A stretch of DNA of 64,000 nt. Origin: Tortispora ganteri (taxonomy: Eukaryota). A program made the position numbers and the translations under genes. Of this stretch, positions 590-49,654 are shown in pieces (within the stretch, counting starts at the first letter, position 1; each line of letters starts with the position of its first letter). The stretch lies in NCBI GenBank assembly GCA_003707115.1, contig PPNB01000020.1:1-64000 (forward strand), given 5' to 3'. Under the pieces are notes generated by a model that was not told where the DNA came from, searched no databases, and saw only the letters and a program-made list of their open reading frames with translations.

Positions 590-1010
590 TTACTGAGTTT
601 TACAGTTCTGTGGATCCTCGGGATTGGCAGAATCTGAAGCACTATTTCCATTTTCACCATTATCAGAATCCTCGTTGCCTTCATCATTTTCGAGGTCCTT
701 AGCCGACGGTGGGGAGAAGAATAAAAAGAAGGAAGGAACAGGTACAACCTTTTGAATCATTCGGATAGCGTTGGTTTTCTTATTACGCTGTTTTCGTATT
801 TCAATTTCGGTAGTGAGATTCTTTTCAGGTGATTTCCAGTCACTCTCGCATCCTTCAGCATAATCATAGACAAAGTCGCCGAAATAAAACACATCATCGT
901 GGTAATGATATGTTTTAGTCAGTACCTCATTGGAGAAAAAGTCATTCTCATCAAAGAAAAGGCTTCGCGGTGTAAGAACTCTGGGGAGCCACATTTGGAA
1001 TCACGCTCAT
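590..1010 (-). pseudogene. Truncated, internally deleted nucleosome assembly protein (NAP1-like) remnant
   Basis: ORF 590-994 matches the NAP1 C-terminal half (FFSNEVLTKTY..GDFVYD.AEGC..DWK...NLT..IEIRKQRNKKT...SFF.FFSPP) and ends in CKTQ, like NAP1 CKQS/CKQQ. It lacks the N-terminal two-thirds and the conserved LELDY..IPRA.DWFTG block. Confidence 0.7.
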
Positions 1011-4986: not shown

Positions 4987-6468
4987 ATGAAACGAGAGCA
5001 AGAATACGATAAAAAATCAACTATCGAACCAAGCTCTCCTATTGAAGATACTGACACCAGTGATTCTGAAATAGTTGATGAGGAAACAGAATCATCAAAC
5101 CAGATACCTGACTATCTGACAGAGGAGTTCATAACTGATGGACAAAATTTCCTGCTGCGCAATGGCCCCCGCGCATTTCTATCGAAGTACTATATCGAGG
5201 AAGAAATTCACCCTGCATCTATCCTCTGTATTCTAGATCAGAATGTCCCCGCTGCATATTGGTCAATAGATCCTCAAGACCTCATGCCTATAGTGCTGTC
5301 TACCATGTCAGATATTTTTCAGCGGAGACAGAAATTGCAACAGTACAACACTCCCGAGGATGCGGCGGAATTGATAAAAAACGCTAAGAATATAATAGTA
5401 CTTACTGGAGCTGGTGTTTCCACCAGTTTAGGCATACCTGATTTTCGTTCCGATACAGGAATATACACTAAATTGGCACAACTCGGCCTTTCTGAACCCC
5501 AAGATGTGTTTGATTTGAGCACCTTTTTAATCGACCCCTCCATCTTCTATAGGTTTGCCAAAGACGTCCTACCGACTACTGTGTCTTTCTCTCCTACGCA
5601 TCTTTTTGTTAAAGTCTTGGACGACCACCATAAGCTCCTCACCAACTACACTCAGAATATAGACAATCTCGAAGTTAATACAGGCCTCAGCCGGGAAAAA
5701 ATCGTACAATGTCATGGATCATTTGCTACAGCGACCTGTATGAAATGCAAGAAAAAAGTTCCAGGTACTCAGCTGTATAGTTATATACGGAAAGGAGAAG
5801 TCGCTTATTGTCAAAATCCTGACTGTGGGACCACACGTGCAGGCTCCAAGCGCCCATTTCCTGGCACTACCAGCAGTGGCGATGAAGATGACGCAGAAGA
5901 TACCCCAGGAGTAATGAAACCTGACATAACATTTTTCGGCGAGAAGCTCCCCGATGAGTTTGAAAACAGGTTCGAAAAAAGAGATATTAATGAATGCGAT
6001 CTTCTCATATGTATTGGAACGTCTTTAAAAGTGGCCCCTGTCAGTGATATAGTGAGAATGCTACCGAGTAGTGTGCCCCAAATATACATAAATAGACAAC
6101 CTTGTCGTCATTATCAGTTTGATATCACATTACTAGGAAACTGTGACGACGTAGTGGCTCATCTGTGCCATTTACTGGGATGGGAACTAAACCACCCAGC
6201 GCTAAAATCTCTTGAGTTTCAAGATAGAATAATAAAAATAGACGATGGGGTCTATTCATTTGGTGAAGTTCAAGCGAATGATTTCGAGTCGTCTAGTTCA
6301 GTCGATGCCACTAGCAGTGAAGATGAACCGAATGAAAACGGTAGTGATACCAAAGATGATAAAGAGAATACAACAGGCTACAAAGTGACGCCTATAGCTG
6401 TCGTACAAGAAGAAATATCTCACACTTCTCATCATCAGTCAACAGAAAACTCAAATCCAACCCTCTAA
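4987..6468 (+). CDS. SIR2: NAD-dependent histone deacetylase, Sir2/Hst1 (class I sirtuin)
   Basis: GAGVSTSLGIPDFRS, NYTQNIDNLE, QCHGSFATATC, KPDITFFGE, IGTSLKVAPVS. Confidence 0.93.
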   Translation: MKREQEYDKKSTIEPSSPIEDTDTSDSEIVDEETESSNQIPDYLTEEFITDGQNFLLRNGPRAFLSKYYIEEEIHPASILCILDQNVPAAYWSIDPQDLMPIVLSTMSDIFQRRQKLQQYNTPEDAAELIKNAKNIIVLTGAGVSTSLGIPDFRSDTGIYTKLAQLGLSEPQDVFDLSTFLIDPSIFYRFAKDVLPTTVSFSPTHLFVKVLDDHHKLLTNYTQNIDNLEVNTGLSREKIVQCHGSFATATCMKCKKKVPGTQLYSYIRKGEVAYCQNPDCGTTRAGSKRPFPGTTSSGDEDDAEDTPGVMKPDITFFGEKLPDEFENRFEKRDINECDLLICIGTSLKVAPVSDIVRMLPSSVPQIYINRQPCRHYQFDITLLGNCDDVVAHLCHLLGWELNHPALKSLEFQDRIIKIDDGVYSFGEVQANDFESSSSVDATSSEDEPNENGSDTKDDKENTTGYKVTPIAVVQEEISHTSHHQSTENSNPTL

Positions 6469-8112
6469 TGCGTTAATAGCATTGAGAAACCTTCGCTTAC
6501 ATTCTGTATTTTTAGATGGATCAAGACTGATTTCCACTGAAATCTTAGATGCTATATCGAGAAACTGGTCAATGAGTTCTTTATGAGTTTCAGGAATGTG
6601 CAAATTTTCAATTTCTCGCGTAAGCTTTTGCCCCATTTTGGTTCTACCCTCAGTTCGCCTAGAGTGAATAGGTTGAGTGGTACTAGCATGAACGCCCAGC
6701 GAGGATGCTGAGAATGATCTGGGCATATCTCTCGGTCCTTTCACGCCTTCCACTCTAGGAAAGGATATATTTCTGGGTGTTTTGGTCGCTTTTGACTCTT
6801 TCTTAAGAGAGGTTTTTTTAGGGCATAACTGCTCACTCGCAGATCTTTGCGCAGATGTCTCAGGAGATAACTCATTCTTATAATCTCGCTGCCTAGGCAG
6901 AATATTTGGTGAATATTTCGATACCGGAGTACTATGCATAGAGCTCTCAGGAGGAAGTACATTCGGAAGTTTAGGATCCTGACCAGTGAACTCAAGTTCA
7001 GGCTGTGGTTCTTTAATGTCAGAAGCACTAAATGGTTCCAACTTCATTTTAGGAGTAGAAAGAGGTAACACTGTTGTTAACTCTGATTCATCTGTGGGAT
7101 CAAAACTTGCTTGGCTTTCATGTCGAGGTATATCTTCAACGTCCAGGGCACTCTGAACACTCATTTGCGAGATCTTTTTTCTGACGTCTCGTAATGTTTC
7201 CAGTATTTCTTCTGCTTGAGATGACCCCAGGGATTCGCGGTGCTCAAGAGGCTTCTTCAATATTTCTGCTAATTGAGGTTCACTTATTGATTTGCGACCT
7301 CGCGCGAACTGCTTTTGTTGCTCAGCAGACTCGGGGTTGGTAGGGATGTTTTTTGAGATACCAGGCGATCGAGTTATTGACCCAGAACTATCAGTAGACT
7401 TTGGAGATGTCCTAGACATGCTTCTAAGTGATCTTATATCTGCCAATACACCCTGAAGCTCAGTAGTGGACTCTTTGACCTTAGTAATGGAAAGATTGCG
7501 ATTAACTCCACTGCTAGTCTGCTCTTGGAACTCTGTGGCAGGTTCTGGATTGCGCGTAAACTGTTTTACAGGGATTTCAGTAGCGTGTCCTAGAACTGGA
7601 GAATATGAAGAAGAGATGCCAGACATGCTAGAGATAGGTCGATCATATCGTTGCTGAACCGGAGAGGAATCGTCTATATCTTTGCCTTTGTTAGTGTTCA
7701 TGTTTGGAGGATCCAAAGGAACTTCAAAGGAGCCAATACGACGTGACTCATGTAATGGCTGTAATACAGATACAGGAGGAATGTTTAGAGATTGACTCGC
7801 TCGCGGAGAAGAGCCAGATTGTCGGGCGAATGCAGGGGAGGGAGGCTGAAGAGGATTGCTCGATCTGGAGGAGGTAGTTGAGCTAGTATAGAGAGAGGTA
7901 CTTTGAGTGGAGCCACTGCTGTTACTGTGCCTACTAGATGTAGGAATTACGGGATAATCGTGTGAAGTAGGTATGGAGGGAAAAGCAGATGCATTTAGTT
8001 CTGTGGAAGAAGAGGGTACTGGAGCGCTGACGTTCGCTTGTGAGCTCTTGTTTCGTGAATGACCGCGCTTAAAAAGCCTTTTTATGCGAGACCCTTTTTT
8101 AGATGAATCCAT
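6451..8112 (-). CDS. Hypothetical Ser/Pro-rich protein with a short helical C-terminal domain
   Basis: Open frame of about 553 codons, first ATG at 8112; low-complexity body, ordered C-terminus (..RRFLNAINALEGWI). Confidence 0.75.
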   Translation of the reverse strand: MDSSKKGSRIKRLFKRGHSRNKSSQANVSAPVPSSSTELNASAFPSIPTSHDYPVIPTSSRHSNSSGSTQSTSLYTSSTTSSRSSNPLQPPSPAFARQSGSSPRASQSLNIPPVSVLQPLHESRRIGSFEVPLDPPNMNTNKGKDIDDSSPVQQRYDRPISSMSGISSSYSPVLGHATEIPVKQFTRNPEPATEFQEQTSSGVNRNLSITKVKESTTELQGVLADIRSLRSMSRTSPKSTDSSGSITRSPGISKNIPTNPESAEQQKQFARGRKSISEPQLAEILKKPLEHRESLGSSQAEEILETLRDVRKKISQMSVQSALDVEDIPRHESQASFDPTDESELTTVLPLSTPKMKLEPFSASDIKEPQPELEFTGQDPKLPNVLPPESSMHSTPVSKYSPNILPRQRDYKNELSPETSAQRSASEQLCPKKTSLKKESKATKTPRNISFPRVEGVKGPRDMPRSFSASSLGVHASTTQPIHSRRTEGRTKMGQKLTREIENLHIPETHKELIDQFLDIASKISVEISLDPSKNTECKRRFLNAINALEGWI

Positions 8113-8438: not shown

Positions 8439-9104
8439 ATGATTCCCAGTGTCGACGAACTTGCACAACGCGCATTGCATCTCTACAATGACAAGAAAAG
8501 CAGGGTACTGATACTGATTGGAGGTGCTCCAGGATCAGGCAAAACGACGCTAGCAACTGAAGTTGCAGGGGAGGTTTCTAAACTCCTGGGAGAAGGGCAA
8601 GCTGTGGCCTTGCCTATGGATGGTTTTCATTACTATCGGCACCAATTGCTAGCAATGGACAACCCAGATGAAGCAATTGCCCGCAGAGGGGCCCCATTTA
8701 CTTTCGACGTGGAGCGAATCCTGAAGTATACCAGGCTACTGGTCAACTCAAATAAGTCAATATTATTTCCTAGTTTTGATCACGCCTTAAAAGATCCTCT
8801 CGAAGATGCTATTAAAGTCGACGCTTCGGTTAAAATTATATTCTTCGAAGGTAACTATCTGCTCATGAATGAACCTATTTGGACAGAGCTATATAGTTTG
8901 GCAACAGAAACCTGGTTAGTTAAAGCGTCGACAGCAGAAATAAGAGATAGACTTGCTAACCGTCACCTCAGAGCAGGACTTGTTGATTCCCTTGAGGACG
9001 GTTACAACAGAGTAGATATGAACGATATTCCTAATGGAGAGTACATGCTATCTCATCTCGGCAGAGTCGATCTCACTGTGGACAATTCATCATTTGATAG
9101 TTGA
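8439..9104 (+). CDS. YFH7: P-loop kinase, phosphoribulokinase/uridine kinase family (YFH7-like)
   Basis: GAPGSGKTT Walker A, PMDGFH, RRGAPFTFD, PSFDHALKDP, EGNYLL; first ATG at 8439. Confidence 0.85.
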   Translation: MIPSVDELAQRALHLYNDKKSRVLILIGGAPGSGKTTLATEVAGEVSKLLGEGQAVALPMDGFHYYRHQLLAMDNPDEAIARRGAPFTFDVERILKYTRLLVNSNKSILFPSFDHALKDPLEDAIKVDASVKIIFFEGNYLLMNEPIWTELYSLATETWLVKASTAEIRDRLANRHLRAGLVDSLEDGYNRVDMNDIPNGEYMLSHLGRVDLTVDNSSFDS

Positions 9105-10771: not shown

Positions 10772-11800
10772 TTAGCTGCTGATAACGGTCTTCTTGGTAG
10801 TTATTACATGAAGAAGAGAGAGGAGCAAGGGAATGATGCACAACAACGTGAACAAACCATTTCTATGGGTCAAAGCGTGGTAGAGGATACCAATACCACC
10901 AGATACCATAAGAACATCGATAACATTAGCAGAAACAATGCGTTTCAATGCAACTGAGATGGAAAGAAGAGTGATGGCCAAGATCGCACCAAAAGCTGCA
11001 GCCATCACAAACAAGAAAACCAAGGGAATGATACCGCGATAAACGATCTGAATGATGGTGAGAGGAATGGCTGCCAAAACAACGGAGATGGAGAGAGTGG
11101 TCAGCCAGCGATCAGAGTTACCGGAAATATCTTGAGCAAGCCCAGTTGATCTTTGTTCCAGTTGGATCAGCTTAAAAGCCAAGATAACTAGAAGAGCAAC
11201 AAATAAGCCTTCAGCTAGAGTCACAAGCCAGCTGGATAATGTCATGCTGTGTTTCATAATCGGAATCCAATACCATCTGCCGAGAAAAGCAGAAGTAACG
11301 ACTACGACGATGTATAAGAGGAAACGTTGCCAAGTCATAAGATCGCGAGCGGATATATCGCGCTGGAAAATAAGATCGATCCAAGGAAGCCATAAGAGAA
11401 CAGCAGCCAGAGTAGCAGAATCAAATCTGAGGTGAATGTATCTTACCGAGTAAGCAGTGCTGCAGTAAAGAACAAGAAGTATAAAAGCGAGTCCTAGGCA
11501 GCGAAGATAGCGAGCCTTATCTGAAAGGATATCTTTAAGCGCCTGTCTAGTCCAGGGAGCGGGGTTTGGGCGAGAAACGGTAGAATCTAGCTGGCTGAGG
11601 CTGCCCGGAAGTCTTGAGTAGTTTATCTGAGTCAAAAGAGAGAAAATTATGCAGGCAAAGAAAGGTGCCCATCCGACAGCACGATGGCGCACTGAGAGGA
11701 TTCCAGCAGAGGAGATCGCCCCAAAGATTAGGATAATCCATGCAAGAACGCGATCGGGGGCATTGCTTGCTCCCAAAAGTCCAGTTTGTTCGTCAGGCAT
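10772..11800 (-). CDS. Hypothetical multi-pass membrane protein (about 9-10 TM, possibly DMT/EamA-like)
   Basis: 342 aa with alternating hydrophobic segments; N-terminal EQTGLL acidic dileucine motif. Confidence 0.7.
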   Translation of the reverse strand: MPDEQTGLLGASNAPDRVLAWIILIFGAISSAGILSVRHRAVGWAPFFACIIFSLLTQINYSRLPGSLSQLDSTVSRPNPAPWTRQALKDILSDKARYLRCLGLAFILLVLYCSTAYSVRYIHLRFDSATLAAVLLWLPWIDLIFQRDISARDLMTWQRFLLYIVVVVTSAFLGRWYWIPIMKHSMTLSSWLVTLAEGLFVALLVILAFKLIQLEQRSTGLAQDISGNSDRWLTTLSISVVLAAIPLTIIQIVYRGIIPLVFLFVMAAAFGAILAITLLSISVALKRIVSANVIDVLMVSGGIGILYHALTHRNGLFTLLCIIPLLLSLLHVITTKKTVISS

Positions 11801-12220
11801 GTTTTAATCGCTTGTGAACAATCGCTGATGTTTGATTTCGATATATCTAGCTGGTGTGAAAGAAAAGAACAGATTGTCAAGGTAAGGCGTTTTATATAAT
11901 GGGCGAAAAGTATAGCTCTAAAAGAGGTAATACTGGATTTTGGCGCAGGGAATAGCGGAGTTGACCGAAAAACTTAAAAGCTTAAGGAGGATGTATTAAT
12001 TTGATCAACCAATAACGGACAATTACCATACGTAATCCCAAAATTTAGTAGGCGTTATTGGCTAAAAGGACGAAGGAAGGGAGTCATTTCGAATTGTACG
12101 GATGTGACTATGTATGTACCGACTTCACTTGTTTAATGTTAGGGTGAGATGTATTTCGGCACGGACCGAAACGTAGTCGTTGGAAAGAATAGAATAGCAG
12201 CAATGTAAAGTTGTTCATGC

Positions 12221-12255
12221 CACACACTGTGCCCACTCAGTGGACACAGTGTGTG
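12221..12255. repeat. 35-bp near-perfect inverted repeat
   Basis: CACACACTGTG-C-CCACT-C-AGTGG-A-CACAGTGTGTG; 16 of 17 arm positions are complementary. Confidence 0.9.
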
Positions 12256-13951
12256 CGCAGCGCTGATCATGGAATGATTTGCATTCAAGCACTACTTCGG
12301 TAGAACGAGGACTTAGACGAGACTAAATTGTTCCCGTGTCTACCTCTCGTCGCACAACGTATCTATAGAACTACGTAATGGTACATCAGATGTTGAAGGT
12401 GATTTTCATATTTTCAATCGTTTCCGCAGCAATGTACCTAGATTACTAAGCGGATAGCATTGAAAAGTATTGGCCACTCAGCCGACCAAGAAGCGCTAGC
12501 ACATCAGGATCTGCTCAGTGACCACCTTCTAATAGGTCGAGCTAGCTGTACCTCCTTTTCGAACAAATCGGGATAGGGTTAAAAGCTATCAGAATGGGGT
12601 TGGTTGCTATGCAAGCTAAGACGGTGAAATTTTCCGTTTACGGAATTGCGATGCTTATCATGCGCGGTAAACGTGAAAGATAAACGAAAGTAACGGCGTA
12701 AGAGTAATTCCTATAAATGCGATTAATACTTCTTTTTTATCTGACTTACTTTATCATCACGATTATTGGCAAGAAGCGTGCAATTACCTTAGCCATCATC
12801 GCTCGATAGACGCAATCTATACTCATTAAAAAATAACGCTTTTTTGGTTATAACGAAAGTGTTTCCGTGATTTTCAAGCTGCTTAATCGATCAGTCGCAC
12901 TTCGATTCGGATATATCGGATAGCAGCGTTAAACTGGGTAATTTTGAATTAGCATAGTGCTCTTAGGTTTACTTACATCCGAGGATTTTTTTAACATAGT
13001 AAGAAACCATTCGCTTGTTCTTAAATTAAGGCTTTAATAGCGTTCGAACCGATTTTATAAAAACGAAGAATAAGTCTTACCCCACGCTATACGTTTCATT
13101 TAATTGTCAAAGCAGTTACTCATCGTGTTTCAGCATTCTCCGTTAATCTATCACGTCAGAGAATACGAATTAGGCTGCTACTTTTAACTTTACATTACAG
13201 ACAAGTTAACTGACCCGACCTTAGTTTTACGGCTCATTTACACCCTTTTACTCCAGAAAGGTGTTTTAGTAGTACACCCGCGTCCGTTTTTGAGCCCATT
13301 TATCTTGGCAGTTGTTCTAATTAGGCTACAAAGTGGAGTCGCAACCCCTAGTTTGCTACGTCTTGGCACCCATTTGACTGTTCTTGGTTGGTTCAACTCT
13401 AAACCTAGCTACCGGGAACCCGATTCTTCCTGAAACCTTAAAACTAACCCACCTGTCGGCAAGCGGCTCTTGTTCTCCACAGCATCTTCCGTTATATATA
13501 TACAACATAGCCTCTTGCTTTACTCACACTTTTTCCTCTTTTAACTAAAAGAATCCACACTGATATATCGATTATTTCGCGTTTTTCTGAGCTCTAAAAT
13601 TCTCACTTTCTGCAAGTGTATCCGTTTAGGGTGTGTTGCTATACATTTTGAAGAAACCCCGTCAAAGATTTTATCATTTCCGCCTACTGATTGTTGAATA
13701 GATTTGCGAGTTCCACGTTAGATCCCTTTCAACTTCTCGATTGGATCTGTTGGTTCTAAATTTTGCTTTTTCATCCTTGTAAACTGTCATAATTCAATCG
13801 CACCTACTTTTTCATATCATACTTTGACAAATCGCAACTGCGCTTCGCATATCTTGTCTTGTCTAAGACTCTTTTCGATTTTGATTTTTTTTTTTTTTGG
13901 ATTATTTTTAACTGTTGTTTTTCTTACAGACCATACATAACTGACTTGGAA

Positions 13952-13966
13952 ATGGTCTCTTTTTAG
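13952..13966 (+). other. Candidate upstream ORF (MVSF*)
   Basis: ATG GTC TCT TTT TAG; the only + strand ATG between 12720 and the main ATG at 14088. Confidence 0.45.
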
Positions 13967-14087
13967 TTCTTTCGTTACATACCTTGTTACATTTCACGAT
14001 TTATATTCCTCTTCTTTGCATTTTTAAATACTGATACACTTTCAAATTGATCACTGATATAGTTTTTTTTTGATCTGGCACCTCAAA

Positions 14088-15140
14088 ATGACTACTACTT
14101 TTCACTCTAATCATAAATTGGATCCGAACTATTGGCGCAATTTAGCCAAATTCGAAGCAATTGTTGCATTATCAGCTCGCCCTAATTCACGCCACCACTC
14201 ATATTCCAGAGCTTCTTCTCGACAAACATCCTCATCGATAACGAATGAACAGATTGCCCATTCATCTGCTGAACCTTTTACTGGTTCTGCTGCTTATCCC
14301 GAATTTGATGGCCTCGACGAAGATGACTTTCGAGGCAGGCCTCGTAATCCTACCGAGCAGCGCGTGTTTGAGTGGATAAACAACCGAATTAATTCGGAAA
14401 ATAGATCAAAAAATAGAGAAGTTGACCTTCAAATCAAACAGGCACATGAAGTGCAACAAGGAAAATCGAGCGGGTCTGATGCTGCCGCTGCCCTTTTGAA
14501 CGCTCTACACACTCCCCTTCCTATTGATCCGCTGGCATCTGCGATACATAGTGGCACTGAATGTTCTAGTTCTAGGGCTTCGACGCCTCCAGAACTATTC
14601 ATGGTTTCTTCTAGACACAACTCTGATCCTAATGCTAATAGTGGATCATCTTCTTCTGCGTCCTTTAAGCAAGGATATGCAACTCGCCCGCAAGCAGGTC
14701 TCTTGCCTAATAGCAGGCCAGTTTATGAAGATGGCTCTTCCGATACTTTTGCTTGCAATGCAAGTGTGGAACTCGCTACACCTCCTCTTGTTGTTGCGTG
14801 TCAAGAAACACCTTTTTCCAGACGTTATTCTACGTCTTCTATTTCTCGTACTGTAACCGGTACAAAGTTTCCTATTATTACAAGGCCCAGTGCCACAAAA
14901 CCTCGTGTGTTTACAATGTTAACACCCGATGGTCGTGTCGTTGACAAATCTGCTAAAAGAAATCTGTCTCGTTCGGATAGCGCTTCTGCTAATGGTTCTG
15001 GATCTCGATCCAGCAATGATTGCAAATGCACAAAGCAAAGAATGAATTTTGATCAGCTTTACCAGTCTCAAATGCTTGAAGAGGCCTATGCATTTAAGCT
15101 TGCTTCTTTGAGGAACTCGTCGACTGATGATTCCGAATAA
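14088..15140 (+). CDS. Hypothetical Ser-rich, largely disordered protein
   Basis: 350-aa ORF; ATG at 14088 in strong context (CAAAATG); no family recognised. Confidence 0.75.
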   Translation: MTTTFHSNHKLDPNYWRNLAKFEAIVALSARPNSRHHSYSRASSRQTSSSITNEQIAHSSAEPFTGSAAYPEFDGLDEDDFRGRPRNPTEQRVFEWINNRINSENRSKNREVDLQIKQAHEVQQGKSSGSDAAAALLNALHTPLPIDPLASAIHSGTECSSSRASTPPELFMVSSRHNSDPNANSGSSSSASFKQGYATRPQAGLLPNSRPVYEDGSSDTFACNASVELATPPLVVACQETPFSRRYSTSSISRTVTGTKFPIITRPSATKPRVFTMLTPDGRVVDKSAKRNLSRSDSASANGSGSRSSNDCKCTKQRMNFDQLYQSQMLEEAYAFKLASLRNSSTDDSE

Positions 15141-15625: not shown

Positions 15626-16360
15626 ATGACAAGAATGGAGAATGATACAAATACCAATGCCGCCGATAATGATGAGCTAGTTAACTTCTCTGGTACACAC
15701 TCAAGCGATCCCCCAGATCCACATAAAGCACAGAAGTCAGATCGCGTACTTAAGGAATACAATAGATCTCTCTTTTTCCAAGAACCAACTGAAAAGATAA
15801 GCACGGAGTCGTCGACTGATAATTTCTACAGACCCCCCATGGAACTCGATGACGTGTTCGCAACATATGGGCTTTATCTTCAGAAAGGGCTGCTACCGGA
15901 CCTTGAATTTGAGCCAATAACTGGATTGCAAGAGGAGGAGGATAAATATGCAAAAAGAAAAACAGCGTTGTATGCTGTTTCAGAAGAGTCAATACTAGGC
16001 AAGATGGAGTCAACGTCTTCATGCGAAAGGGAACAGTTTGCAGAAGAACAGACTACAGAAATGCCTAACAGCAGCAACTATGTAAGTCTGAATTCAGAGA
16101 GCAGTTCCGGAACAGAACCAAATCTAACGGTAAACGAGTCAAAAGACGAGTGGAGTGACTCTGAAACTCTAGTTGGATCAGAGTCATCTGATACTTACAC
16201 CCTAGTATCGCCTGCGCAATCTTTTCCAGCGGAGGTACCAATACTGAGTCATTTGGCGCATGATTGTATTGATGATTCTACTGAGTCATATGAAAATCTG
16301 AACAACGTTTTTGGTGATGCATATGAGACAGCGAGAGCTGTATATGTGTTAACTGTTTGA
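15626..16360 (+). CDS. Hypothetical acidic Ser/Glu-rich protein
   Basis: 244-aa ATG-initiated ORF filling the gap between neighbours; no family recognised. Confidence 0.6.
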   Translation: MTRMENDTNTNAADNDELVNFSGTHSSDPPDPHKAQKSDRVLKEYNRSLFFQEPTEKISTESSTDNFYRPPMELDDVFATYGLYLQKGLLPDLEFEPITGLQEEEDKYAKRKTALYAVSEESILGKMESTSSCEREQFAEEQTTEMPNSSNYVSLNSESSSGTEPNLTVNESKDEWSDSETLVGSESSDTYTLVSPAQSFPAEVPILSHLAHDCIDDSTESYENLNNVFGDAYETARAVYVLTV

Positions 16361-23073: not shown

Positions 23074-23388
23074 TTAATGAGCACGACGAGACTCAGCGAT
23101 TACACCATTGAGTTCCTCGACTTTGCTCTTGCCACGCTTGAAAGTTCCTAATCTTCTCTTAGCAAGTTTGCGCGCACGCTTGTCCTTGCTGTTACGCAAT
23201 AATTCCATAACACGTCGCTCATAAGGTGCAAATCCTACAACTTCCTTGATTAATCCGCGAACGAATTGAGTGTTCTTGGAGAGCTTGCCCTTAGAGTTGG
23301 AGGGACGGGCAGGAATGGCACGAGGAGTGACCTTGTGTCCCTTGTTAAGACCAACAGCAATACCTGATTTTTGTTCCTTAATAGCCAT
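23074..23388 (-). CDS. RPL36: 60S ribosomal protein L36e
   Basis: [43 protein letters not shown] at 23388, no intron in the CDS. Confidence 0.97.
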
Positions 23389-23682
23389 TGTTGCTTGTGA
23401 ATGTGTATATGAACGGTAAAGTACTAAGTACAGTATTGCTGAAAGGCCAAGTCGTTGATACATTGATGCTTCTCTTCCTCCCAACGTGACCGCTGTTAGG
23501 TTTAGAGTTGTCATACCAACACAACCCTATGAAGTGAAACTGTTTTAAGGTTGTTTCCGGTGGGAAAGGCTTGAAGACCCAATGCACCCAGCGGATTGCA
23601 GGTGCAGGTAAGGGGAAAGCTCAGTTCACATTAGAATTTCAGTTATTTGCATATTGAACTCGTTCTTTCATTAAATTAACCA

Positions 23683-38832: not shown

Positions 38833-38960
38833 ATCCTTATGCTCGGGCATTACGCATATCAGTGAGGATTCGTCCGAGATTGTGTATTTGCTGGTTGAAA
38901 ACTATTTTTGACCGCTCTTACAAGGCTTTTATTGTCATGTAAGGAATTTTTGGCCACTAC
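38833..38960 (+). ncRNA. SNR14: U4 spliceosomal snRNA
   Basis: The 5' sequence ATCCTTATGC.CGGG...TACGCATATCAGTGAGGATTCGTCCGAGATTGTGT.TTTGCTGGTTGAAA is nearly identical to yeast U4 (stem II, K-turn 5' stem-loop, stem I). Sm site AATTTTTGG at 38945-38953; 3' end approximate. Confidence 0.95.
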
Positions 38961-39178
38961 TTCGCTTACTGCATATTATCTGCGGTGAGCTCCCACTTTC
39001 TTTAATGTAGACCGATCGTTGTTTATCGATGTAATAACTACTTATTATATGGTTAATTGCTTATAAATGATATTGTAAACCAATTATTCTGTTGATGCAT
39101 AGTCATATGTTCCAATTCTTAAAATACTCAATACTCGTTTTCGTGCTTTCGCTGACCCGCCCAATCTCTGTTTCCGCC

Positions 39179-41685: not shown

Positions 41686-42327
41686 TTACTTGCGATACCA
41701 CATTCTTGTGATTTTCTGAGCTCGCATCTTTTTCTGAAGTTGGAATACACCGTACATTAGTGCCTCGGCAGTAGGAGGACATCCGGGGACATAAACGTCA
41801 ACAGGAACAATCCTGTCACAGCCTCTTACCACGGAATATGAATAGTGGTAGTATCCGCCGCCGTTAGCGCATGAACCCATAGAAATTACCCATCGGGGCT
41901 CAGGCATTTGATCGTAAACTTGTCGTAGGCATGGTGCCATCTTGTTCGTAAGCGTACCGGCAACAATCATAATGTCACTCTGTCTAGGAGAAGCGCGGAA
42001 AATAATTCCCAGTCTGTCCTGATCGTATCTTGGTGTCGACAGGTGCATCATTTCGACGGCACAACATGCTAAACCGAAAGTCATAGGCCAGAAAGATCCT
42101 TGTCTAGCCCAGCTAGCAATCCTGTCAAGCGATGTCAGGACATAGTCCACAGCGCTGTCTGGCTTCTGCTCACTAGGCAGCGGGTAGTTGGTAGGCATTG
42201 TCGAAGGTGCGTTTAAGGCCTCTTGAACCTGTACTGATGCAGCTGTAGCAGCTGTGCGGCTTGTGTGGACATTGTGGATGCATCCAAATCGCTGAAGCCC
42301 ACGAAATCCTAATCTTGTTCTGAGCAT
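41686..42327 (-). CDS. Complex I core subunit PSST / 20 kDa (NDUFS7, NuoB)
   Basis: [52 protein letters not shown]; mitochondrial presequence from ATG 42327. Confidence 0.97.
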
Positions 42328-42610
42328 AATTGAACCAGAAAAAAGAAGCTCGTTCGTAGGAAAAGAACCGTAGAAGTTGGTTGGTTGGCGGTCGTAGAAA
42401 AAAGAGGGTCCCAGCTTCACTGTTGGTTTTGGCTAGTACCTTTTTCCGTGTCTTCCAATTGGCCAAAGTCAATACACAGCGCAAATTAAAGTTAATACAT
42501 CTGATAAACCTTCTTTGCTGTACATATAATATTATACATTAAATACAAGTATTCTAAAATGCACTTACTATTGTTCAGTAAGAAGCGAGTTACTAGGCTA
42601 TTCAGCTGAC

Positions 42611-44140
42611 TCAATTGAAGATCTTTTTCTTGATGCTTTTCAATAACCCAGAATTTTTCTCTGCAGCAGAATCAGGGGTCGCTGTAGCTCCAGTATCTAC
42701 GATCGTTACAGGCCCAACGCGAGTAACGGCCTGGAGAGTGCTCGATTCTTGTGGGCTCTGCACAGCTTCTTGCGGGCTCTGCACAACTTCTTGTGGGGTC
42801 AAAGCAGCGGGACCGGCAGAATTAGTGATTTTAGAATTATCTCCTCCAGCAGTGTTAGCATTTCTAGAATCCTCTCCTCCACTAGTGATTGCTAAACCGT
42901 TGGCACCGTCATTGATATTAATGTATCCCAGATTGTTGAATGGCAAGTAAGCGATCTTCCTTGGTACCTGACCACATCCACTAGATCTCTTATCAAAAAC
43001 ATGTGCTGATCCTTCCTCGATTGACTCTGCCTCGATAGATGCTTCCTTATCTTGTTCAATCTCATGTTTGTTAAGATCTTTATAGAACTCATCAGACTCA
43101 TTCTCGCTTCCAAAAACGAAATCACCAGCCTCTTCATTCTCATCCAGCTCTCTCTTCTCATAATCATGTTCACTAAGTTCAGCATCTTTGACAGTTGCTC
43201 TCTTGGAGAAATCATCGAACTTATCATTGTGGTCGTCCTCAAGGTGGCCATCAGCGTGATGATGCTGATGCTCATGATGGAAATCCTCTTCTCCTTTGTG
43301 GTGCCATTCCTTGTGCTTGTGCATAGCTCCTGTTTCATGATGCTTGTGCTTTTCGTAGTGGCTATGAGATTCAATTCCCTTGTGTTCTTCTTCATGTTTG
43401 TGTCCGTGACGTTCCTTGTGCAGATGCTTTTCATGCTCGCTGTGTTGGTGATGTTCTTGGTGGTGATGTTTGTGCTCTTCCTTGTGTTTATGGTCTTGAT
43501 GTTCGTGGTGAAGATGTTTCGCATCATAATCATGTTTGTCTTTGTGACCATGGTGAGATTGCTCATGGTGCTGATGACTATCCGTATGCTTATGACCGTG
43601 ATGCTCATCATGACCGTGATGCTCCTTGTGCTCATGATGCTCCTTATGATTATGATGCATCTTGCTATCATGTTTATGATGTTCCTTGTGGTTGTGCATC
43701 TGCTTTTCATCATGGTTATGATGTTCCTTGTGATCATGGTGTTCCTTTTCCTGATGGTCATGATGCTCCTTATGATCATGATGCTCATTATGGCTATGGA
43801 TTTGCTTCTCGTGGTGTTTATCATGGTGTTCATGTCCATGATGTTCCTTGTGTCCATGATGGTCATGGTGTACATGATGATGGTGATGAATTTCCTTGGG
43901 TCCACATTGATGGTGATGATGAGGCTTGTGGTGATGGCCGTGATGGCCATGATGGCCATATCCCCAGTTTCTAGGTTCAAGGTTGTTAAATTTAGCAGCT
44001 GGTTCTCCTGCGCCTGCATCTTTTTTACTCTCATCAAGATTGGCTTCTCTAGCAGCTTCCACTGATGCGCCAAGCGACTGACCACCAAGAACGAACATGG
44101 CCATCCAAACGTAAACGGCTACCTTTCCAACTCCCTGCAT
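42611..44140 (-). CDS. Predicted secreted histidine-rich repeat protein with Kex2-type sites
   Basis: Hydrophobic N-terminal signal peptide; His-rich tract at about 43244-43954 built of HKEHHx-like units; PR/KR sites flank the domains; ATG-to-stop frame of 509 aa. Confidence 0.8.
   Translation of the reverse strand: MQGVGKVAVYVWMAMFVLGGQSLGASVEAAREANLDESKKDAGAGEPAAKFNNLEPRNWGYGHHGHHGHHHKPHHHHQCGPKEIHHHHHVHHDHHGHKEHHGHEHHDKHHEKQIHSHNEHHDHKEHHDHQEKEHHDHKEHHNHDEKQMHNHKEHHKHDSKMHHNHKEHHEHKEHHGHDEHHGHKHTDSHQHHEQSHHGHKDKHDYDAKHLHHEHQDHKHKEEHKHHHQEHHQHSEHEKHLHKERHGHKHEEEHKGIESHSHYEKHKHHETGAMHKHKEWHHKGEEDFHHEHQHHHADGHLEDDHNDKFDDFSKRATVKDAELSEHDYEKRELDENEEAGDFVFGSENESDEFYKDLNKHEIEQDKEASIEAESIEEGSAHVFDKRSSGCGQVPRKIAYLPFNNLGYININDGANGLAITSGGEDSRNANTAGGDNSKITNSAGPAALTPQEVVQSPQEAVQSPQESSTLQAVTRVGPVTIVDTGATATPDSAAEKNSGLLKSIKKKIFN
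42746..42797 (-). repeat. 21-bp tandem repeat (2.5 copies) encoding PQE(V/A)VQS
   Basis: + strand: TTCTTGTGGGCTCTGCACAGC / TTCTTGCGGGCTCTGCACAAC / TTCTTGTGGG. Confidence 0.85.
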
Positions 44141-44571
44141 AGTGATTGAGTGAAGGAATTAATGAAATTGAAAAAAGGAGTATGGTTAAAAAAAATAGGC
44201 CAAATAACTCTAGCTTACTGATATTCCAGTATTTCGTCGCAAAAAGGCTGGAGTAATAATTGAGGGTTTGGCAAAGGCTCTTGTTAATATAATGCTCTGG
44301 GAAGCAACGTCGCATATGCCGCGCCATGATTTTCAAATAAATTTCTCCTAAATGCAATGCAGATATGGTGCGAAAATTAAAGCACAATCATAATAAAACT
44401 CTCGGAGTAAAACTGCAGCTTGCCCTTTACTTGGGCAGACCCTCGAAACCGCAGCGTGAAAAGGAATAAATGGGACCTGAATGATTCGTTTAACCAGTCA
44501 TGTAACTTATTTTGCAAGTTCGCTATGCAGGGATCAATCGCATGTATTCTGCTTGTTTTAATTCTAACTTA

Positions 44572-45906
44572 TCATAAACCAGATTTGTCGGCAAGGTTTT
44601 GAATTAGTCGAGTGAAATCTATCTTTTCAGCATGTAGCATAAATACGGACTTCATGTTCAAGCTGTCCAAGCTACTGTAGTCCTCACTTTTGTTAAAAAT
44701 GTATTGAACAAGAGAGGAATGATTCACTGCTTCAGAATCTAAAGGGTCTGTCTCTTCAGTTGATTTTGATTCCGGACTGTATGGTATAGTTTTAGCGCTT
44801 TTTAGCATTTGAATTATAATTTCAGGTGCCTCGAGATATCTTAGACGATCTATTAGTATAGTGAGACCAGCTAAAGAGAAGGTTAGAGAATTAATCAGCC
44901 TAGTGCTATCTGATTTTCTCTTTTGTGTCATCCCGTCATATGTGATACCAATAATTGTGTTAGCAAACGCTTCAACAACTGAAGATAAATTGCTTGAATT
45001 ACTAGTTGAGCAATGCTTCAACATTAGACGCGTGATTGCTTTGTATGCTTCCTCTTTAGGTAGTTTAAAAGCTCGAGTGGTACTCTGAAGAACTATCGGG
45101 GTGGATGTGCTTGAAGCCGGGGTTAAAGATAACGGTGTTGATTCGTTCATCATACAATTTGAAGTTTGTTGCATGCCGTTGACTGAAAGGTCCCTTTTTA
45201 TGCTTGCACTTCTAGTGAGCATTGCGCAGGAGTTAGAAGGGTTCGAAGACGAATCTGCTACAGCAGAATGTGCTTTTCGCTTGAAGTTCTTAGAAAGGGT
45301 CGTTATCTCGGAGTTCCACTGCGATCTTGTAACTCTGCGGGTAGCTCTTGAAATTTTTCGCCGCTCAATTTCTAAACTTTTCTTAATTCTAGCAGTAGAT
45401 ACTCTCGTATTATTACTTAGAACTGAGACGCCTAATGTGAGTTTATCGACGTTATTATCTTGAATTGAATAAAAATCGTCCGCAGCAATTGCAGGAAGTT
45501 GCTGTTTTTTTTGGTTAGATATTGTTTGCTGGCGGACTTTTCGTAATTTTTGTAAAATATCTTTCCCTCGTGCAGGTATGTCGTAGAACTTCTCAACTGA
45601 AGGTTTGACAGGGTTCTCTTTCACTTCATTATCCTCTCCGCTACATACAGAAATGCATAGCTCTTCTGAATCGCAATTTTCAGTATTTTCAGTCTTGTTG
45701 AAATTATTCTCCAGGGTTACAGATTTATCTGTACCTTTGATTCGCAGCTGAGTTAGCTTTTCTTGAAAATGAGCGTAGTCAACGGAGCATTTAATGGCGT
45801 CGGCGATGGATTGTATGCGATCTATATCTATATTGTCAACTTCAGCTTGTTTGCCATCAATAGATCTTCTAGGAGTATCTGGCACTAGATGCTCCATGAG
45901 CGCCAT
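44572..45906 (-). CDS. Hypothetical protein (basic, N-terminal TPRR CDK-type site)
   Basis: Long open frame; first ATG at 45906 (MALMEHLVPDTPRRS); no family recognised. Confidence 0.7.
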   Translation of the reverse strand: MALMEHLVPDTPRRSIDGKQAEVDNIDIDRIQSIADAIKCSVDYAHFQEKLTQLRIKGTDKSVTLENNFNKTENTENCDSEELCISVCSGEDNEVKENPVKPSVEKFYDIPARGKDILQKLRKVRQQTISNQKKQQLPAIAADDFYSIQDNNVDKLTLGVSVLSNNTRVSTARIKKSLEIERRKISRATRRVTRSQWNSEITTLSKNFKRKAHSAVADSSSNPSNSCAMLTRSASIKRDLSVNGMQQTSNCMMNESTPLSLTPASSTSTPIVLQSTTRAFKLPKEEAYKAITRLMLKHCSTSNSSNLSSVVEAFANTIIGITYDGMTQKRKSDSTRLINSLTFSLAGLTILIDRLRYLEAPEIIIQMLKSAKTIPYSPESKSTEETDPLDSEAVNHSSLVQYIFNKSEDYSSLDSLNMKSVFMLHAEKIDFTRLIQNLADKSGL

Positions 45907-46372: not shown

Positions 46373-49300
46373 ATGTCGTTCTCTCAAAATGCTATTCATA
46401 TAGTTTCTCTTCCTGACGCAATTGTAGAAATAACTACTTCCAAAATACTCCTTCATACATCCTTCACGCCATATGCGATATTAACTGAACAAGATTTCTC
46501 TGTCTCTGAAGACTCTTTTGTTTTGGTTCACAGATCGCGTTTTGCCATATTATCTCCGACTCACGTCTCAATTTGGGATACAGAAAAACAGAAATTGTGT
46601 CAACGCTACGCGTTCGATGTAGACGCTCAGTCCCCAGTGAAGGCTGCTACTTGGGATACGGTCGGTGAAGCTCTCTACGTGGCGACTCCCTCAAGTTTCT
46701 ACTTCGTCGATATCCCTGGATCTTGGAAAAGTAGAGTCCCGTTTCCTAATTCAGGATTGCAAGCTATGGATAGTTGCCCCGCAGATGGTAGCATTCTCGC
46801 GTTGGGCTATCAAAGTGGCAGCCTTGTTGTTGCGAAACTATCTTTGTCAGGCATTCAGGTTTTGCTAAACGTCGAACCAGGCAGTTCACGCTTCAAAAGA
46901 TCCTCTGGGGACTCAGCGGAACTTTCTCTTTTGTCTGCGAAACCTTCGAATCATGAAATATTCTCTCTAGCTTGGCATCCTGCGTCTGTAAGCTTATCCT
47001 CTCAGACACTAGCTGTTGCTCGAGCGGACAAAACTGTTGAGCTCTGGAACGTGAACTGTCAAGACTGGGCAAAGAAGAGACGGTCGCTTATACTCTCTTC
47101 CAGCTCTGTTTCGACAAGGGACATGCTATCCTGGTGTAAAGGTGGCCGTATCGTATATTCAGACTACAAAACAGTGGAAGTGCACCATCTTCTTGAGCAC
47201 GATTTGTCGATTTTATTCCGAGGACAAATAAAGTCTTTATCTCTTTCACCAGATCGCACTCAGATATTTCTGTTGCCTGAAGGGTACTCTACCTTGGTTA
47301 CTTTAGATTCGATAACTCAGGCTCCCCTGTCTCCAAATTCTGAAGCAGAAAACGATATTCCAACAATTCCTTTGGTCTCAAATTCTCCAACTGTGCCTCT
47401 AATAAGGCAACCCGTTCCAAAATCTTTTCAAAAACTAAAACGCAGTGCATCTCCTCATACATATCCACCTAATCAATCGCCGCGCTTTGTCGCTCAGTCA
47501 AACTTTCACCGCCCTTCGATTTCTCAAAAGAGTCCCGTGATCTACAATCATTCTGAGCATGCGATATCTCCTAGACCAAATGGAAGACATCGCTCCTCTT
47601 CTCATTCGGCTCCTAGCCAAAGGCGGCCGAGCAATTCTCACCCGCCTACGCCAAACATCGACTACCCTCCGCCAAGAAGAGCATTGAATTCTAAGGCTCC
47701 ATCCACCCCTCCTGTTCCTGCTATGTTTGCTACAACTGAAAAAGAACCAATTCTGGCTGAAGAGATCGTAGCTCGCAAAGATTCCTTTTCCGACAAGATT
47801 GGAATCACTCCGTTGCCCGATATCGGGTCATTTAAGAAAAGCATTACAATGTCGCGTGAAGATAAAATAGAGGCATTCTACTCTATCTCACGTCAAAATT
47901 CTGAGGCACAAGAGTATGTTCCAGCAGCCATTCTGAAATCCCCTGTTAGCTCCTCTCCTGTTGTGATAGGGGTAGTAGCCGAAGATTTGGATGATTCAGA
48001 CGAGTCAGATCACAGTGATCAGGACCTTAATGACTTTGAGTCGCAGACAGAACCTCTCAGGATTCCACAGCGTCTTGCACAGCATAATGAAATTGAAACT
48101 CCCTTGTCAAGTTCACCGATTGAAATAGGCCTGGCTTATGAGGAACCAGTAACCAGTGATATAGCTGTTGGTATTGTGTCAGACAATAGCCATTCTTCAT
48201 CAATGGCTGAAAGTTCCGAACCAGTTTCTCCTGCTTCTCATTCTTCGAGTATTTATGACCTGGCAATTTCAACTGGACTGGCGATATCATGTGATCCCGA
48301 AGTCGGCCACGAAGAGCGCATGGCTGAGCTGAAAGCAGATACTGCAGCTGTCAGCTTAGAAAGTGAAGAAAGTTTTGATCAACTACTCGAAAATTACCAA
48401 GAAATCAATGCTTCTATAGAAAAAACAAGTCCCGAATCCTTCGATAAAGCTGTCTCGAACAATACAACGCAACTAAGAAATATCGATGATCAGCCTGCAT
48501 TAGCTGCAGTTGAAGACGAGACTGTTGATCTTGCTGCTACGTCATTATTTCCTCAATTATTATCCACACTTCTGAAAGAAATGAATGACCATAAATCCTG
48601 TTTAATTGCTTCAGACTCAAATGTGAATATTGCAACTTATTTCTCTGAAGATACTGACAAATCTAGCGCTTGTTTCGAAATGATAAGACAGATCTGGGCA
48701 GGGTCTTATGATCCTGACAATGCAGACGCTTATTTGAGAACTGAAGTAGACAAAGAGATACTCTCACGATGGGCGATATTTACTGTTGGTCTAAATAAGG
48801 AATCTTTGAGAAATCATACATCAGAGCAAGACATAGTCTTAAAAGCTACCCAGTTATTGAATTGGGAATCCGTCGAAAGTGCCGTGGAATTTCTAGCTTC
48901 AAAAGGTTTGTATTTTGACGCATATTTATTGTGCAAGTTGCGAGGTATTGCCACTATTCCCGTGCTCAAAAATTGGTCACATTCGATAAAGGACAAGAAC
49001 TCAAAGGTTTACAATCTCTGCAGGACGCTTATTGCGAACACTATTGATCAGGATAGAGTGAAACCTCCTAACAGACAAGATTCTTTATTGAGGAAAACTC
49101 GGGTGCCTATAGCTGCTTTGCCCGTTGACCTCCCCTCACAGACTTTAAGTCCGGTCACTTCAAACACATCCGAAAACGTCGAAGACAAAAGTTCTGAATT
49201 ATCTTGCGCTTCTGATGGCTGTGCTTTATCGATTTCCAACACCACTGGATTTGCTGATCACGGCAATGAAACGGAAGAAAAGGCAAAGCAGGACTTTAGA

Positions 49301-49654
49301 CGGTCTCAAGACATGGAAAGATTACCTACTATTTTTGGACATGGAGTCGGATTACCGTCTAATCCTAAATCAATGAAGCCCATGCATAACGCAATTGATC
49401 GTCCATCTGTGGTTGAGATACGAGAGCCAGAACAAGCCAAAGAGGTAAGGGACCAGTTAGATATTGCAGCGGAGATCGCTCAGAAAGAGAGAGGAAAAGT
49501 CGACGACAGCATTAAAGAATATCAGCCTACCAAGAAGATGAGATCAAGATCATTTTCATTTAAACTGCTCAAACACAATAGTCACAAGAAGCATGAAGTT
49601 AAAAATCACGAGAGACCGTTGTCCACGGAAGTGCAAACTGGAATTGCTGTATAG
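46373..49654 (+). CDS. Protein with N-terminal WD40-like beta-propeller, disordered middle and helical C-terminal region
   Basis: Beta-rich repeats ending in W/WD-like motifs (HVSIWD, SLAWHP, TVELWN); Ser/Pro/acidic linker; helical segment AVEFLASKGLYFDAYLLCKL. Confidence 0.7.
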   Translation: MSFSQNAIHIVSLPDAIVEITTSKILLHTSFTPYAILTEQDFSVSEDSFVLVHRSRFAILSPTHVSIWDTEKQKLCQRYAFDVDAQSPVKAATWDTVGEALYVATPSSFYFVDIPGSWKSRVPFPNSGLQAMDSCPADGSILALGYQSGSLVVAKLSLSGIQVLLNVEPGSSRFKRSSGDSAELSLLSAKPSNHEIFSLAWHPASVSLSSQTLAVARADKTVELWNVNCQDWAKKRRSLILSSSSVSTRDMLSWCKGGRIVYSDYKTVEVHHLLEHDLSILFRGQIKSLSLSPDRTQIFLLPEGYSTLVTLDSITQAPLSPNSEAENDIPTIPLVSNSPTVPLIRQPVPKSFQKLKRSASPHTYPPNQSPRFVAQSNFHRPSISQKSPVIYNHSEHAISPRPNGRHRSSSHSAPSQRRPSNSHPPTPNIDYPPPRRALNSKAPSTPPVPAMFATTEKEPILAEEIVARKDSFSDKIGITPLPDIGSFKKSITMSREDKIEAFYSISRQNSEAQEYVPAAILKSPVSSSPVVIGVVAEDLDDSDESDHSDQDLNDFESQTEPLRIPQRLAQHNEIETPLSSSPIEIGLAYEEPVTSDIAVGIVSDNSHSSSMAESSEPVSPASHSSSIYDLAISTGLAISCDPEVGHEERMAELKADTAAVSLESEESFDQLLENYQEINASIEKTSPESFDKAVSNNTTQLRNIDDQPALAAVEDETVDLAATSLFPQLLSTLLKEMNDHKSCLIASDSNVNIATYFSEDTDKSSACFEMIRQIWAGSYDPDNADAYLRTEVDKEILSRWAIFTVGLNKESLRNHTSEQDIVLKATQLLNWESVESAVEFLASKGLYFDAYLLCKLRGIATIPVLKNWSHSIKDKNSKVYNLCRTLIANTIDQDRVKPPNRQDSLLRKTRVPIAALPVDLPSQTLSPVTSNTSENVEDKSSELSCASDGCALSISNTTGFADHGNETEEKAKQDFRRSQDMERLPTIFGHGVGLPSNPKSMKPMHNAIDRPSVVEIREPEQAKEVRDQLDIAAEIAQKERGKVDDSIKEYQPTKKMRSRSFSFKLLKHNSHKKHEVKNHERPLSTEVQTGIAV

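Follow-up and report, generated by a model that had tools for sequence, protein, structure and literature searches.

The first 64,000 nucleotides of contig PPNB01000020.1 of the budding yeast Tortispora ganteri (GenBank assembly GCA_003707115.1, forward strand; this whole stretch is called the window below) carry, on the minus strand at 42611–44140, an open reading frame (ORF) in which 107 of the 509 residues are His. How extreme this composition is can be judged from the 20 other window ORFs (13,085 codons), in which His makes up 2.2%, and from the six-frame translation of the 64 kilobases (kb), in which all 25 stop-free windows of 60 amino acids with at least 12 His fall in one frame, between 43151 and 44050. 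The locus raises two questions, namely whether such an ORF is a gene and what its product would do. The answer that we put forward tentatively, with less than even confidence, is that it would encode a disordered secretory precursor from which Kex2-type cuts release a high-capacity, pH-switchable metal-binding domain, the physiological role being extracellular metal scavenging or buffering.

With regard to the first question, we scored codon usage as log-odds trained on the 20 other window ORFs, whose own in-frame mean is 0.176. The two flanks of the His tract, residues 1–57 and 313–509, scored +0.388 and +0.315, respectively, in the His frame and negative in the five other frames; inside the tract the test does not discriminate, the His frame scoring 0.065 and one antisense frame 0.22. 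The ATG of the ORF is the first one after the preceding stop. A comparison was possible with a contig of a sister organism (organism B, from a public run), which spans 42300–44500 with 47 differences in 477 bases and 123 in 1646, so that identity across the locus is about 90–92%. Within the ORF, the length changes relative to organism B are of 15, 3 and 9 bases, plus a stretch of 78 bases replaced by 24, all multiples of three, whereas outside the ORF there are five, each of a single base. Read by hand among the 40 differences listed, the in-frame changes correspond to one GHH unit, one His, five residues of an acidic spacer and copies of a repeat in the C-terminal tail. The frame-specific codon usage of the flanks, the in-frame length changes and a set of non-random cleavage motifs described below thus argue that 42611–44140 is probably a real gene in the His frame.

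The locus is almost unchanged in two public runs of another organism (organism A), one of which may be the source of the window. Two bases, 42820 and 43880, are identical in the two runs but not in the window; read by hand, one difference is a synonymous His codon and the other turns residue 441 from Ser to Ala, and either strain variation or a difference of assembly would account for them.

To a contrary explanation, that the ORF is not a functional gene and is instead a chance-open frame in repeat-derived DNA, or a young proto-gene that is unexpressed or has no selected function, we give little credence. It would account for the uninformative codon usage of the His tract (0.065 against 0.22 in antisense), for a divergence from the sister organism that is near intergenic levels, for the lack of any match among 1.84 billion representative sequences, when the neighbouring gene finds a 77%-identical protein, and for the two other frames that stay open across the repeat, at 42892–44034 on the minus strand and 43064–44065 on the plus strand. 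It fits poorly with flanks of 57 and 197 codons that are open and gene-like in this frame only, with within-ORF length changes that all keep the frame against five single-base changes outside, with a signal-like N-terminus placed exactly at the first ATG, with the non-random cleavage motif, and with the normal spacing to both neighbours (283 and 431 base pairs, bp). The two overlapping ORFs themselves, of 380 and 333 amino acids, respectively, were rejected as mirror images of CAT/CAC, which reads as ATG/GTG on the opposite strand, and are rich in Met, Ile, Val and Thr; neither extends beyond the repeat, and their codon usage in the flanks gives negative scores. Since CAT/CAC repeats carry no stops in several frames, extra open frames over the tract are expected, and these two are repeat artefacts that could mislead gene callers.

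The repeats of the His tract were examined at the DNA level. Tandem Repeats Finder returned 13 rows, with periods of 9, 18, 21, 24 and 42 nt and 60–94% matches; those of the His domain are degenerate and have periods of 9, 18, 24 and 42 nt, every one a multiple of 3. The longest run of identical codons in the ORF is three, the His codons are a mixture (66 CAT and 41 CAC, compared with 194 and 96 in the other ORFs), and HKEHH, present six times, is encoded by three DNA variants whose differences are all synonymous. Because codon runs are this short, the CAT/CAC mixture is near that of the other ORFs and the units differ only synonymously, the repeats are old and codon-based and not a recent microsatellite. 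No paralogue was found within the window, the other tblastn matches having E values of 0.75 and 4.8. In both runs of organism A, a second contig matches 43752–43788 (37 bases, 5 mismatches) and then runs into unlike sequence rich in His and Asp codons; the genome of organism A therefore holds at least one further His-codon-rich locus.

An earlier note on this DNA, made by a model from the letters and a list of ORFs, had described the product as a secreted precursor with a signal peptide, an acidic pro-region ending in LEPR, a tract of about 240 residues with 40–50% His, and then FSKR, YEKR, an acidic spacer, FDKR and a distinct C-terminal domain; it placed a single Cys in each of the His and C-terminal domains. 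Most of this anatomy held. His accounts for 103 of the 239 residues (43%) from 62 to 300, the parts and sites follow each other in the order given, the spacer has a net charge of -17 (residues 331–383), and the only Cys are C79 and C389; the N-terminal hydrophobic segment seen by hydropathy, together with four sites far above chance expectation, is consistent with a secretory precursor. Two descriptions need qualification: LEPR does end at residue 57, but the region before it (residues 26–57) is only mildly acidic, with a net charge of -2, and the HKEHHx and HxEKQxH units named in the note are present but less regular than claimed, the degenerate repeats containing HKEHH six times and H.EKQ.H twice.

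Hydropathy peaks at residues 11–16 (9-residue Kyte-Doolittle mean 2.14), the best 19-residue window reaches 1.51, and no second hydrophobic segment was found in the protein on this scale. For residues 1–25 a cleavable signal peptide appears to fit better than a membrane anchor, the putative cleavage site lying near residue 25. As regards further processing, four of the nine Arg follow a Lys or Pro and combine it with a hydrophobic P4 (LEPR57, FSKR314, YEKR330 and FDKR385). Three KR pairs in residues 301–395 were equalled in 57 of 20,000 shuffles of that region and in 1017 of 20,000 over residues 26–509, and four sites of the form [L/F/Y]-x-[K/P]-R were equalled in none of 20,000 shuffles for either range. 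Passages of a study on Kex2-processed secreted proteins give the preferences of the protease as Arg at P1, Lys at P2 with Pro as an accepted alternative, and Leu, the favoured residue, or another aliphatic one at P4, and use LxxR as a search motif (PMC8528282); the four sites, with Arg at P1, Lys or Pro at P2 and a hydrophobic P4, fit these preferences in form as they are stated there (PMC8528282). Full cutting would give a 32-residue pro-piece, the His domain as residues 58–314, an acidic peptide of 16 residues, a piece of 55 residues that contains the only N-x-S/T sequon of the protein (N347-E-S, inside the acidic spacer), and a tail of 124 residues. With 32 Lys but just one Arg, and KR nowhere within it, the His tract would come through processing uncut.

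No fold was predicted for these pieces. AlphaFold2 (AF2), run from the single sequence, so that a low predicted local distance difference test score (pLDDT) is weak evidence of disorder, gave a mean pLDDT of 44, a predicted template modelling score of 0.20 and 388 of 509 residues below 50, with helices only at 5–25, 27–30, 225–244 and 497–507; pLDDT was about 40–54 in the His domain and 33–37, the lowest of the protein, in the tail. On a charge-hydropathy plot residues 26–385 lie on the disordered side and the tail (386–509) marginally on the folded side. The tail contains short repeats (GG[ED][DN]S[RK] twice and PQE.VQS twice) and a 21-nt repeat of 2.5 copies at 42746–42797, and the helical hydrophobic moment of the whole protein peaks at its Lys-rich end, residues 499–509. 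For the His domain a net charge of -22 was calculated if its His are neutral, and of up to +82 if they are protonated.

The earlier note had recognised no family, and our searches agree with it. No Pfam family was found for the 509-residue protein at E ≤ 1; the word-index search of 5.8 billion clusters yielded 1010 candidates with residues 310–509 and 5842 with the full length, of which none passed; the exhaustive phmmer search of 1,835,955,588 representatives gave 0 matches at E ≤ 0.001; and PDB sequences gave 0 matches to residues 306–509 at E ≤ 10. A metagenome scan with residues 313–509 produced 264 pattern matches, none of them confirmed, the exact-sequence look-up matched 0 of 5 window proteins, and the Atlas held no usable match for the C-terminal part. 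With the whole protein the Atlas returned an arthropod 'His-rich glycoprotein-like' cluster with a score of 0.80, which is within the range of shuffled proteins and was rejected as a compositional look-alike only. Literature searches on secreted fungal His-rich proteins and on the HKEHH motif turned up no described relative, a result that holds for the one library searched. Searches with the non-repetitive C-terminal part, of the kind that the earlier note had proposed, were thus negative. The protein appears to be an orphan restricted to a narrow yeast lineage, with its only detectable relative in one sister organism. This is not merely the effect of an unsampled lineage, because the product of the adjacent gene at 44572–45906 finds a protein of Tortispora caseinolytica that is 77% identical.

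We compared the predicted precursor with the known systems that it resembles. With the Pra1/AspF2/Zps1 zincophores it would share secretion by a fungus and a proposed role in taking up metal by means of His ligands. As described in passages of PMC12663325, Pra1 has flexible His-rich C-terminal arms, its His-rich tails bind zinc, and it is a folded, metalloprotease-derived hexamer with an HRXXH+H triad and a CHTHXXGXXHC end, encoded beside the gene of its ZIP receptor (PMC12663325). Membership of the Pra1/AspF2 family was rejected, there being no Pfam family at E ≤ 1, no folded domain in the AF2 model and no HR..H or CHTH by regular expression. The adjacency typical of Pra1 was not found either: no ZIP domain occurs among the 34 other window ORFs, and the flanking genes are that of a complex I 20-kDa subunit and one without a Pfam family. 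The number of His here is more than an order of magnitude above that of Pra1. The likeness to Hpn and Hpn-2 is one of composition only. Hpn of Helicobacter pylori, for which passages of PMC4671568 give 28 His in 60 residues, 5 Ni per monomer and proven metal sequestration, has a comparable His density (28/60 against 104/255), and it is a 60-residue cytoplasmic bacterial protein with Cys pairs, whereas the protein studied here is a 509-residue predicted eukaryotic secretory precursor.

In terms of construction, the signal-like N-terminus seen by hydropathy and the several KR sites recall the Kex2-processed repeat proteins (KEPs), such as alpha-factor, Rep1 of U. maydis and Ece1 of C. albicans. 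The KEP pipeline, as outlined in passages of PMC6339444, first requires at least four fragments after in-silico KR/RR cleavage and then at least three similar repeats flanked by Kex2 sites. In-silico KR cleavage does give four fragments here (26–314, 315–330, 331–385 and 386–509), which is the number that the first filter asks for. All the repeats, however, lie within the first fragment of 289 residues, which has no internal KR or RR, and the other fragments, of 16, 55 and 124 amino acids, are unlike in composition. The word 'polyprotein' used in the earlier note does not apply in this sense, since the KR sites do not flank repeat units and no two of the three pieces that they bound are alike in length and composition. 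X-Ala or X-Pro dipeptides of the Ste13 type were not seen after the KR sites when the sequence was read.

The K2PP secreted proteins share with the predicted precursor a short disordered N-terminal pro-piece and an LxxR-type site, here LEPR, right after the signal peptide, as far as passages of PMC8528282 describe them; K2PP effectors are folded and usually Cys-rich, come from plant pathogens and are cut once, whereas here LEPR is followed by three more candidate sites and the AF2 model shows nothing folded. Taken together, the protein would work most like a zincophore or an Hpn-type His sponge and seems to be built most like a Kex2-processed precursor, and it appears to be a member of none of these families.

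Histatins are short, cationic, antimicrobial salivary peptides that are His-rich, secreted, proteolytically released and metal-binding. Membership of this group was rejected, because the putative released His domain has about 255 residues and a net charge of -22 with neutral His.

The order of the parts led us to consider a secreted protein of two chains joined by a disulfide, on the plan of a yeast killer preprotoxin and with an antimicrobial or competitive action, an explanation that we regard as distinctly unlikely. Under it, Kex2 would remove the pro-piece and an acidic 'gamma' (residues 315–385), the His 'alpha' and the tail 'beta' would stay linked by Cys79–Cys389, and the His chain, which could carry a charge of up to +82 at the low pH common in yeast habitats, would damage the envelopes of competitors or starve them of metal. 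K28, according to passages of PMC5666379, has a signal, a pro-sequence removed by Kex2, an alpha chain with a single Cys, an N-glycosylated gamma that Kex2 also removes, a beta chain and one inter-chain disulfide, and the order of the parts here matches this scheme (PMC5666379). The likeness to K28 and K1 is at the level of motifs only: the pre/pro/alpha/gamma/beta order, exactly one Cys per putative mature chain and the only sequon, N347, inside the spacer at 331–385 that would be excised. The charge switch of the His chain and the cationic amphipathic helix at the end of the tail would also suit such an action. However, the protein resembles nothing in sequence, not even a killer toxin, it has no HDEL(R) end, and the gene is chromosomal and among housekeeping genes, not on a double-stranded RNA satellite. 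Moreover, the His chain has a net charge of -22 at neutral pH, no known killer toxin subunit is comparable to a disordered 'alpha' in the form of a His polymer of 255 residues, and two Cys in 509 residues may be a coincidence.

In the mechanism that we favour, that of a metal-binding secretory precursor, signal peptidase would cut near residue 25 and a Kex2-type protease of the late Golgi after R57, R314, R330 and R385. The His domain and the tail would thereby be released, and a Cys79–Cys389 bond could still hold the two together. Within the acidic secretory pathway the acidic spacer might mask the positive charge of the His domain, as anionic pro-pieces mask the charge of cationic peptides. 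Outside the cell, the disordered His domain would act as a high-capacity, low-selectivity array of ligands for Zn, Cu or Ni. With its 104 imidazoles it would almost inevitably bind all three metals in vitro, and scaling from the ratio of Hpn (28 His, 5 Ni) would give a capacity of roughly 15–20 ions. The metal would be loaded above about pH 6.5 and released on protonation of the imidazoles, and given the shift in net charge from -22 to a maximum of +82, binding and release should switch around pH 6. The role would be metal scavenging or metal buffering in the habitat. Most Tortispora species have been recorded almost exclusively with cacti, as stated in passages of PMC11449361.

A bolder form of this mechanism, which we consider improbable, would see in the protein a metallophore unrelated to Pra1 that arose by codon-repeat expansion: a pH-switchable 'sponge' of about 100 imidazoles, made from a killer-toxin-like pre-pro-alpha-gamma-beta precursor, in which the acidic gamma would chaperone the His chain along the secretory pathway and the tail, held by one disulfide, would tether or target that chain. 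If true, fungi would have evolved the capture of metal outside the cell by a protein twice, independently.

Several observations weigh against the metal-scavenging precursor. At three of the four sites P4 is aromatic (F or Y), and Kex2 prefers an aliphatic residue; in addition, Asp at P3, as in FDKR, is termed unfavourable for Kex2 in passages of PMC8528282. The single-sequence origin of the AF2 model, noted above, limits what it says about disorder. The divergence from organism B is about 7% in the coding region, little below the roughly 10% of the downstream intergenic DNA, and, read by hand, 5 of the 8 differences listed in the last 36 codons change the amino acid, which suggests that constraint on the ORF is weak to modest. 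Despite an annotated relative, T. caseinolytica, no homologue was found, so that the gene may be young. With regard to a link with metals, the Pfam scan of the 34 other window ORFs detected neither a ZIP transporter nor any other gene for metal uptake. The upstream 431 bp hold no consensus of the Zap1, Mac1, Aft1 or Rim101/PacC type, nor any match to ZRE, CuRE, URS1 or STRE; these are consensuses of S. cerevisiae, which may not apply here.

The same upstream region bears on another unlikely explanation, in which the protein would be a structural, pH- or metal-responsive matrix component of the cell wall or the ascospore wall, where His-metal cross-links or a pH-triggered condensation would harden or glue the wall. 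The His-rich structural proteins of animals offer a comparison for such hardening or gluing. A single heptamer resembling the mid-sporulation element (MSE) lies at 44238–44244, but such a match is expected 0.34 times by chance. The His domain, a low-complexity polyampholyte with units started by His, Gly or aromatic residues, would suit a matrix, and so would a tail that is moderately rich in Ser and Thr (23/124) and has short repeats whose copy number varies between sister organisms. On the other hand, the protein has neither a hydrophobic C-terminus of the glycosylphosphatidylinositol (GPI) type nor a DGQ repeat of the Pir type, and thus no known covalent anchor to the wall, and cuts at the KR sites would separate the His domain and the tail from each other if no disulfide held them. 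Membership of the GPI or Pir wall proteins was accordingly rejected, the C-terminal hydropathy being low, the end Lys-rich and DGQ absent.

The N-terminal features can be read in one more way. A lumenal metal store or buffer of an internal compartment, the vacuole or the Golgi, that is not exported would also begin with a signal-like segment and a pro-piece, as the precursors of vacuolar hydrolases do, and the large would-be metal capacity would serve it well. We consider it very improbable: no HDEL end, membrane anchor or known sorting motif was identified, and KR processing is typical of proteins that pass on through the late Golgi. The coordinates of the gene, of the parts of its predicted product and of its flanks are collected in Table 1.

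Table 1. Features of the His-rich ORF and its flanks in the window (positions on the forward strand).
Feature	Position	Strand	Remarks
Whole coding sequence	42611..44140	minus	509 codons plus TGA stop; ATG start; uninterrupted
Residues 1–25, signal-peptide-like	44066..44140	minus	K6, uncharged core 7–20, small residues 22–25
Predicted pro-piece, residues 26–57, ending L-E-P-R	43970..44065	minus	candidate Kex2-type site, P4 Leu, P2 Pro
His/Glu/Lys-rich low-complexity domain, residues 58–312	43205..43969	minus	104 His/255, single Cys79, only 1 Arg
K313-R314 (F-S-K-R), first dibasic site	43199..43204	minus	
Short acidic peptide, residues 315–330, ending Y-E-K-R (second dibasic site, 329–330)	43151..43198	minus	
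Acidic spacer, residues 331–385, ending F-D-K-R (third dibasic site, 384–385)	42986..43150	minus	
Non-His tail, residues 386–509	42614..42985	minus	net charge 0, single Cys389, 23/124 Ser+Thr
Predicted cationic amphipathic C-terminal helix, residues 497–509	42614..42652	minus	not a GPI-type hydrophobic tail
Upstream intergenic region, 431 bp, presumed promoter	44141..44571	minus	TATA-like hexamer at about -151; one MSE-like heptamer at 44238–44244
Downstream intergenic region, 283 bp, presumed terminator and promoter of the complex I 20-kDa subunit gene	42328..42610	minus	
15-base in-frame length difference relative to organism B	at 43015		in the acidic spacer
78 bases replaced by 24 in organism B	42777–42854		in the tail

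The gene for the complex I 20-kDa subunit, at 41686–42327, is the downstream neighbour, and the gaps of 283 and 431 bp on the two sides are normal for the window. The neighbours identified by Pfam have housekeeping or unrelated functions and include genes for a glycogen debranching enzyme, a Zn2Cys6 factor, the complex I 20-kDa subunit, a TRF-type telomere factor and Snf7. The upstream neighbour, at 44572–45906 on the minus strand, encodes 444 amino acids without a Pfam family and is a second lineage-restricted gene; in the search of 5.8 billion clusters its product had one homologue only, which is annotated as hypothetical, comes from Tortispora caseinolytica NRRL Y-17796 and is 77% identical over 99% of the length.

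Six more ORFs, of 221–1093 amino acids, have no Pfam family at E ≤ 1e-5, namely 46373–49654 (+), 6451–8112 (-), 8439–9104 (+), 10772–11800 (-), 14088–15140 (+) and 15626–16360 (+). Between two of them, the stretch of about 2.3 kb at 11801–14087 holds no ORF of at least 120 amino acids on either strand, the rest of the window being densely coding. In the L36e ribosomal protein ORF at 23074–23514 (-) the Pfam profile match starts only at residue 50 of 146, and the NAP ORF at 590–994 (-) matches profile positions 133–235 only; both look like single exons of intron-containing genes or 5'-extended ORFs. A gene for the U4 spliceosomal small nuclear RNA (Rfam RF00015, 96.8 bits, full model length) sits at 38833–38964 (+), between the genes for the glycogen debranching enzyme and the Zn2Cys6 factor, and ARAGORN found no transfer RNA gene in the 64 kb.

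As far as its parts can be read, the protein would belong with known kinds, the secreted His-based metal binders and the Kex2-processed precursors, and stand out by its extreme composition and a coherent secretory-processing layout. If the ORF is not expressed, it is merely a curiosity of repeat evolution; if it is expressed and exported, the finding would be striking, while making no long-standing question newly testable. A product that is made and exported would be among the most His-dense secreted proteins described in a fungus and, in practical terms, a natural protein for immobilised metal affinity chromatography as well as a pH-switchable metal-binding polymer. It would also represent a second, structurally unrelated protein route to extracellular metal handling in fungi, besides the zincophores of the Pra1 type. 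Finally, a lineage-restricted codon-repeat gene with a complete secretory-processing layout, that is, a signal, a pro-piece, four non-random cleavage motifs, a spacer with a sequon and one Cys per putative chain, would be a useful test case for the origin of new secreted proteins.

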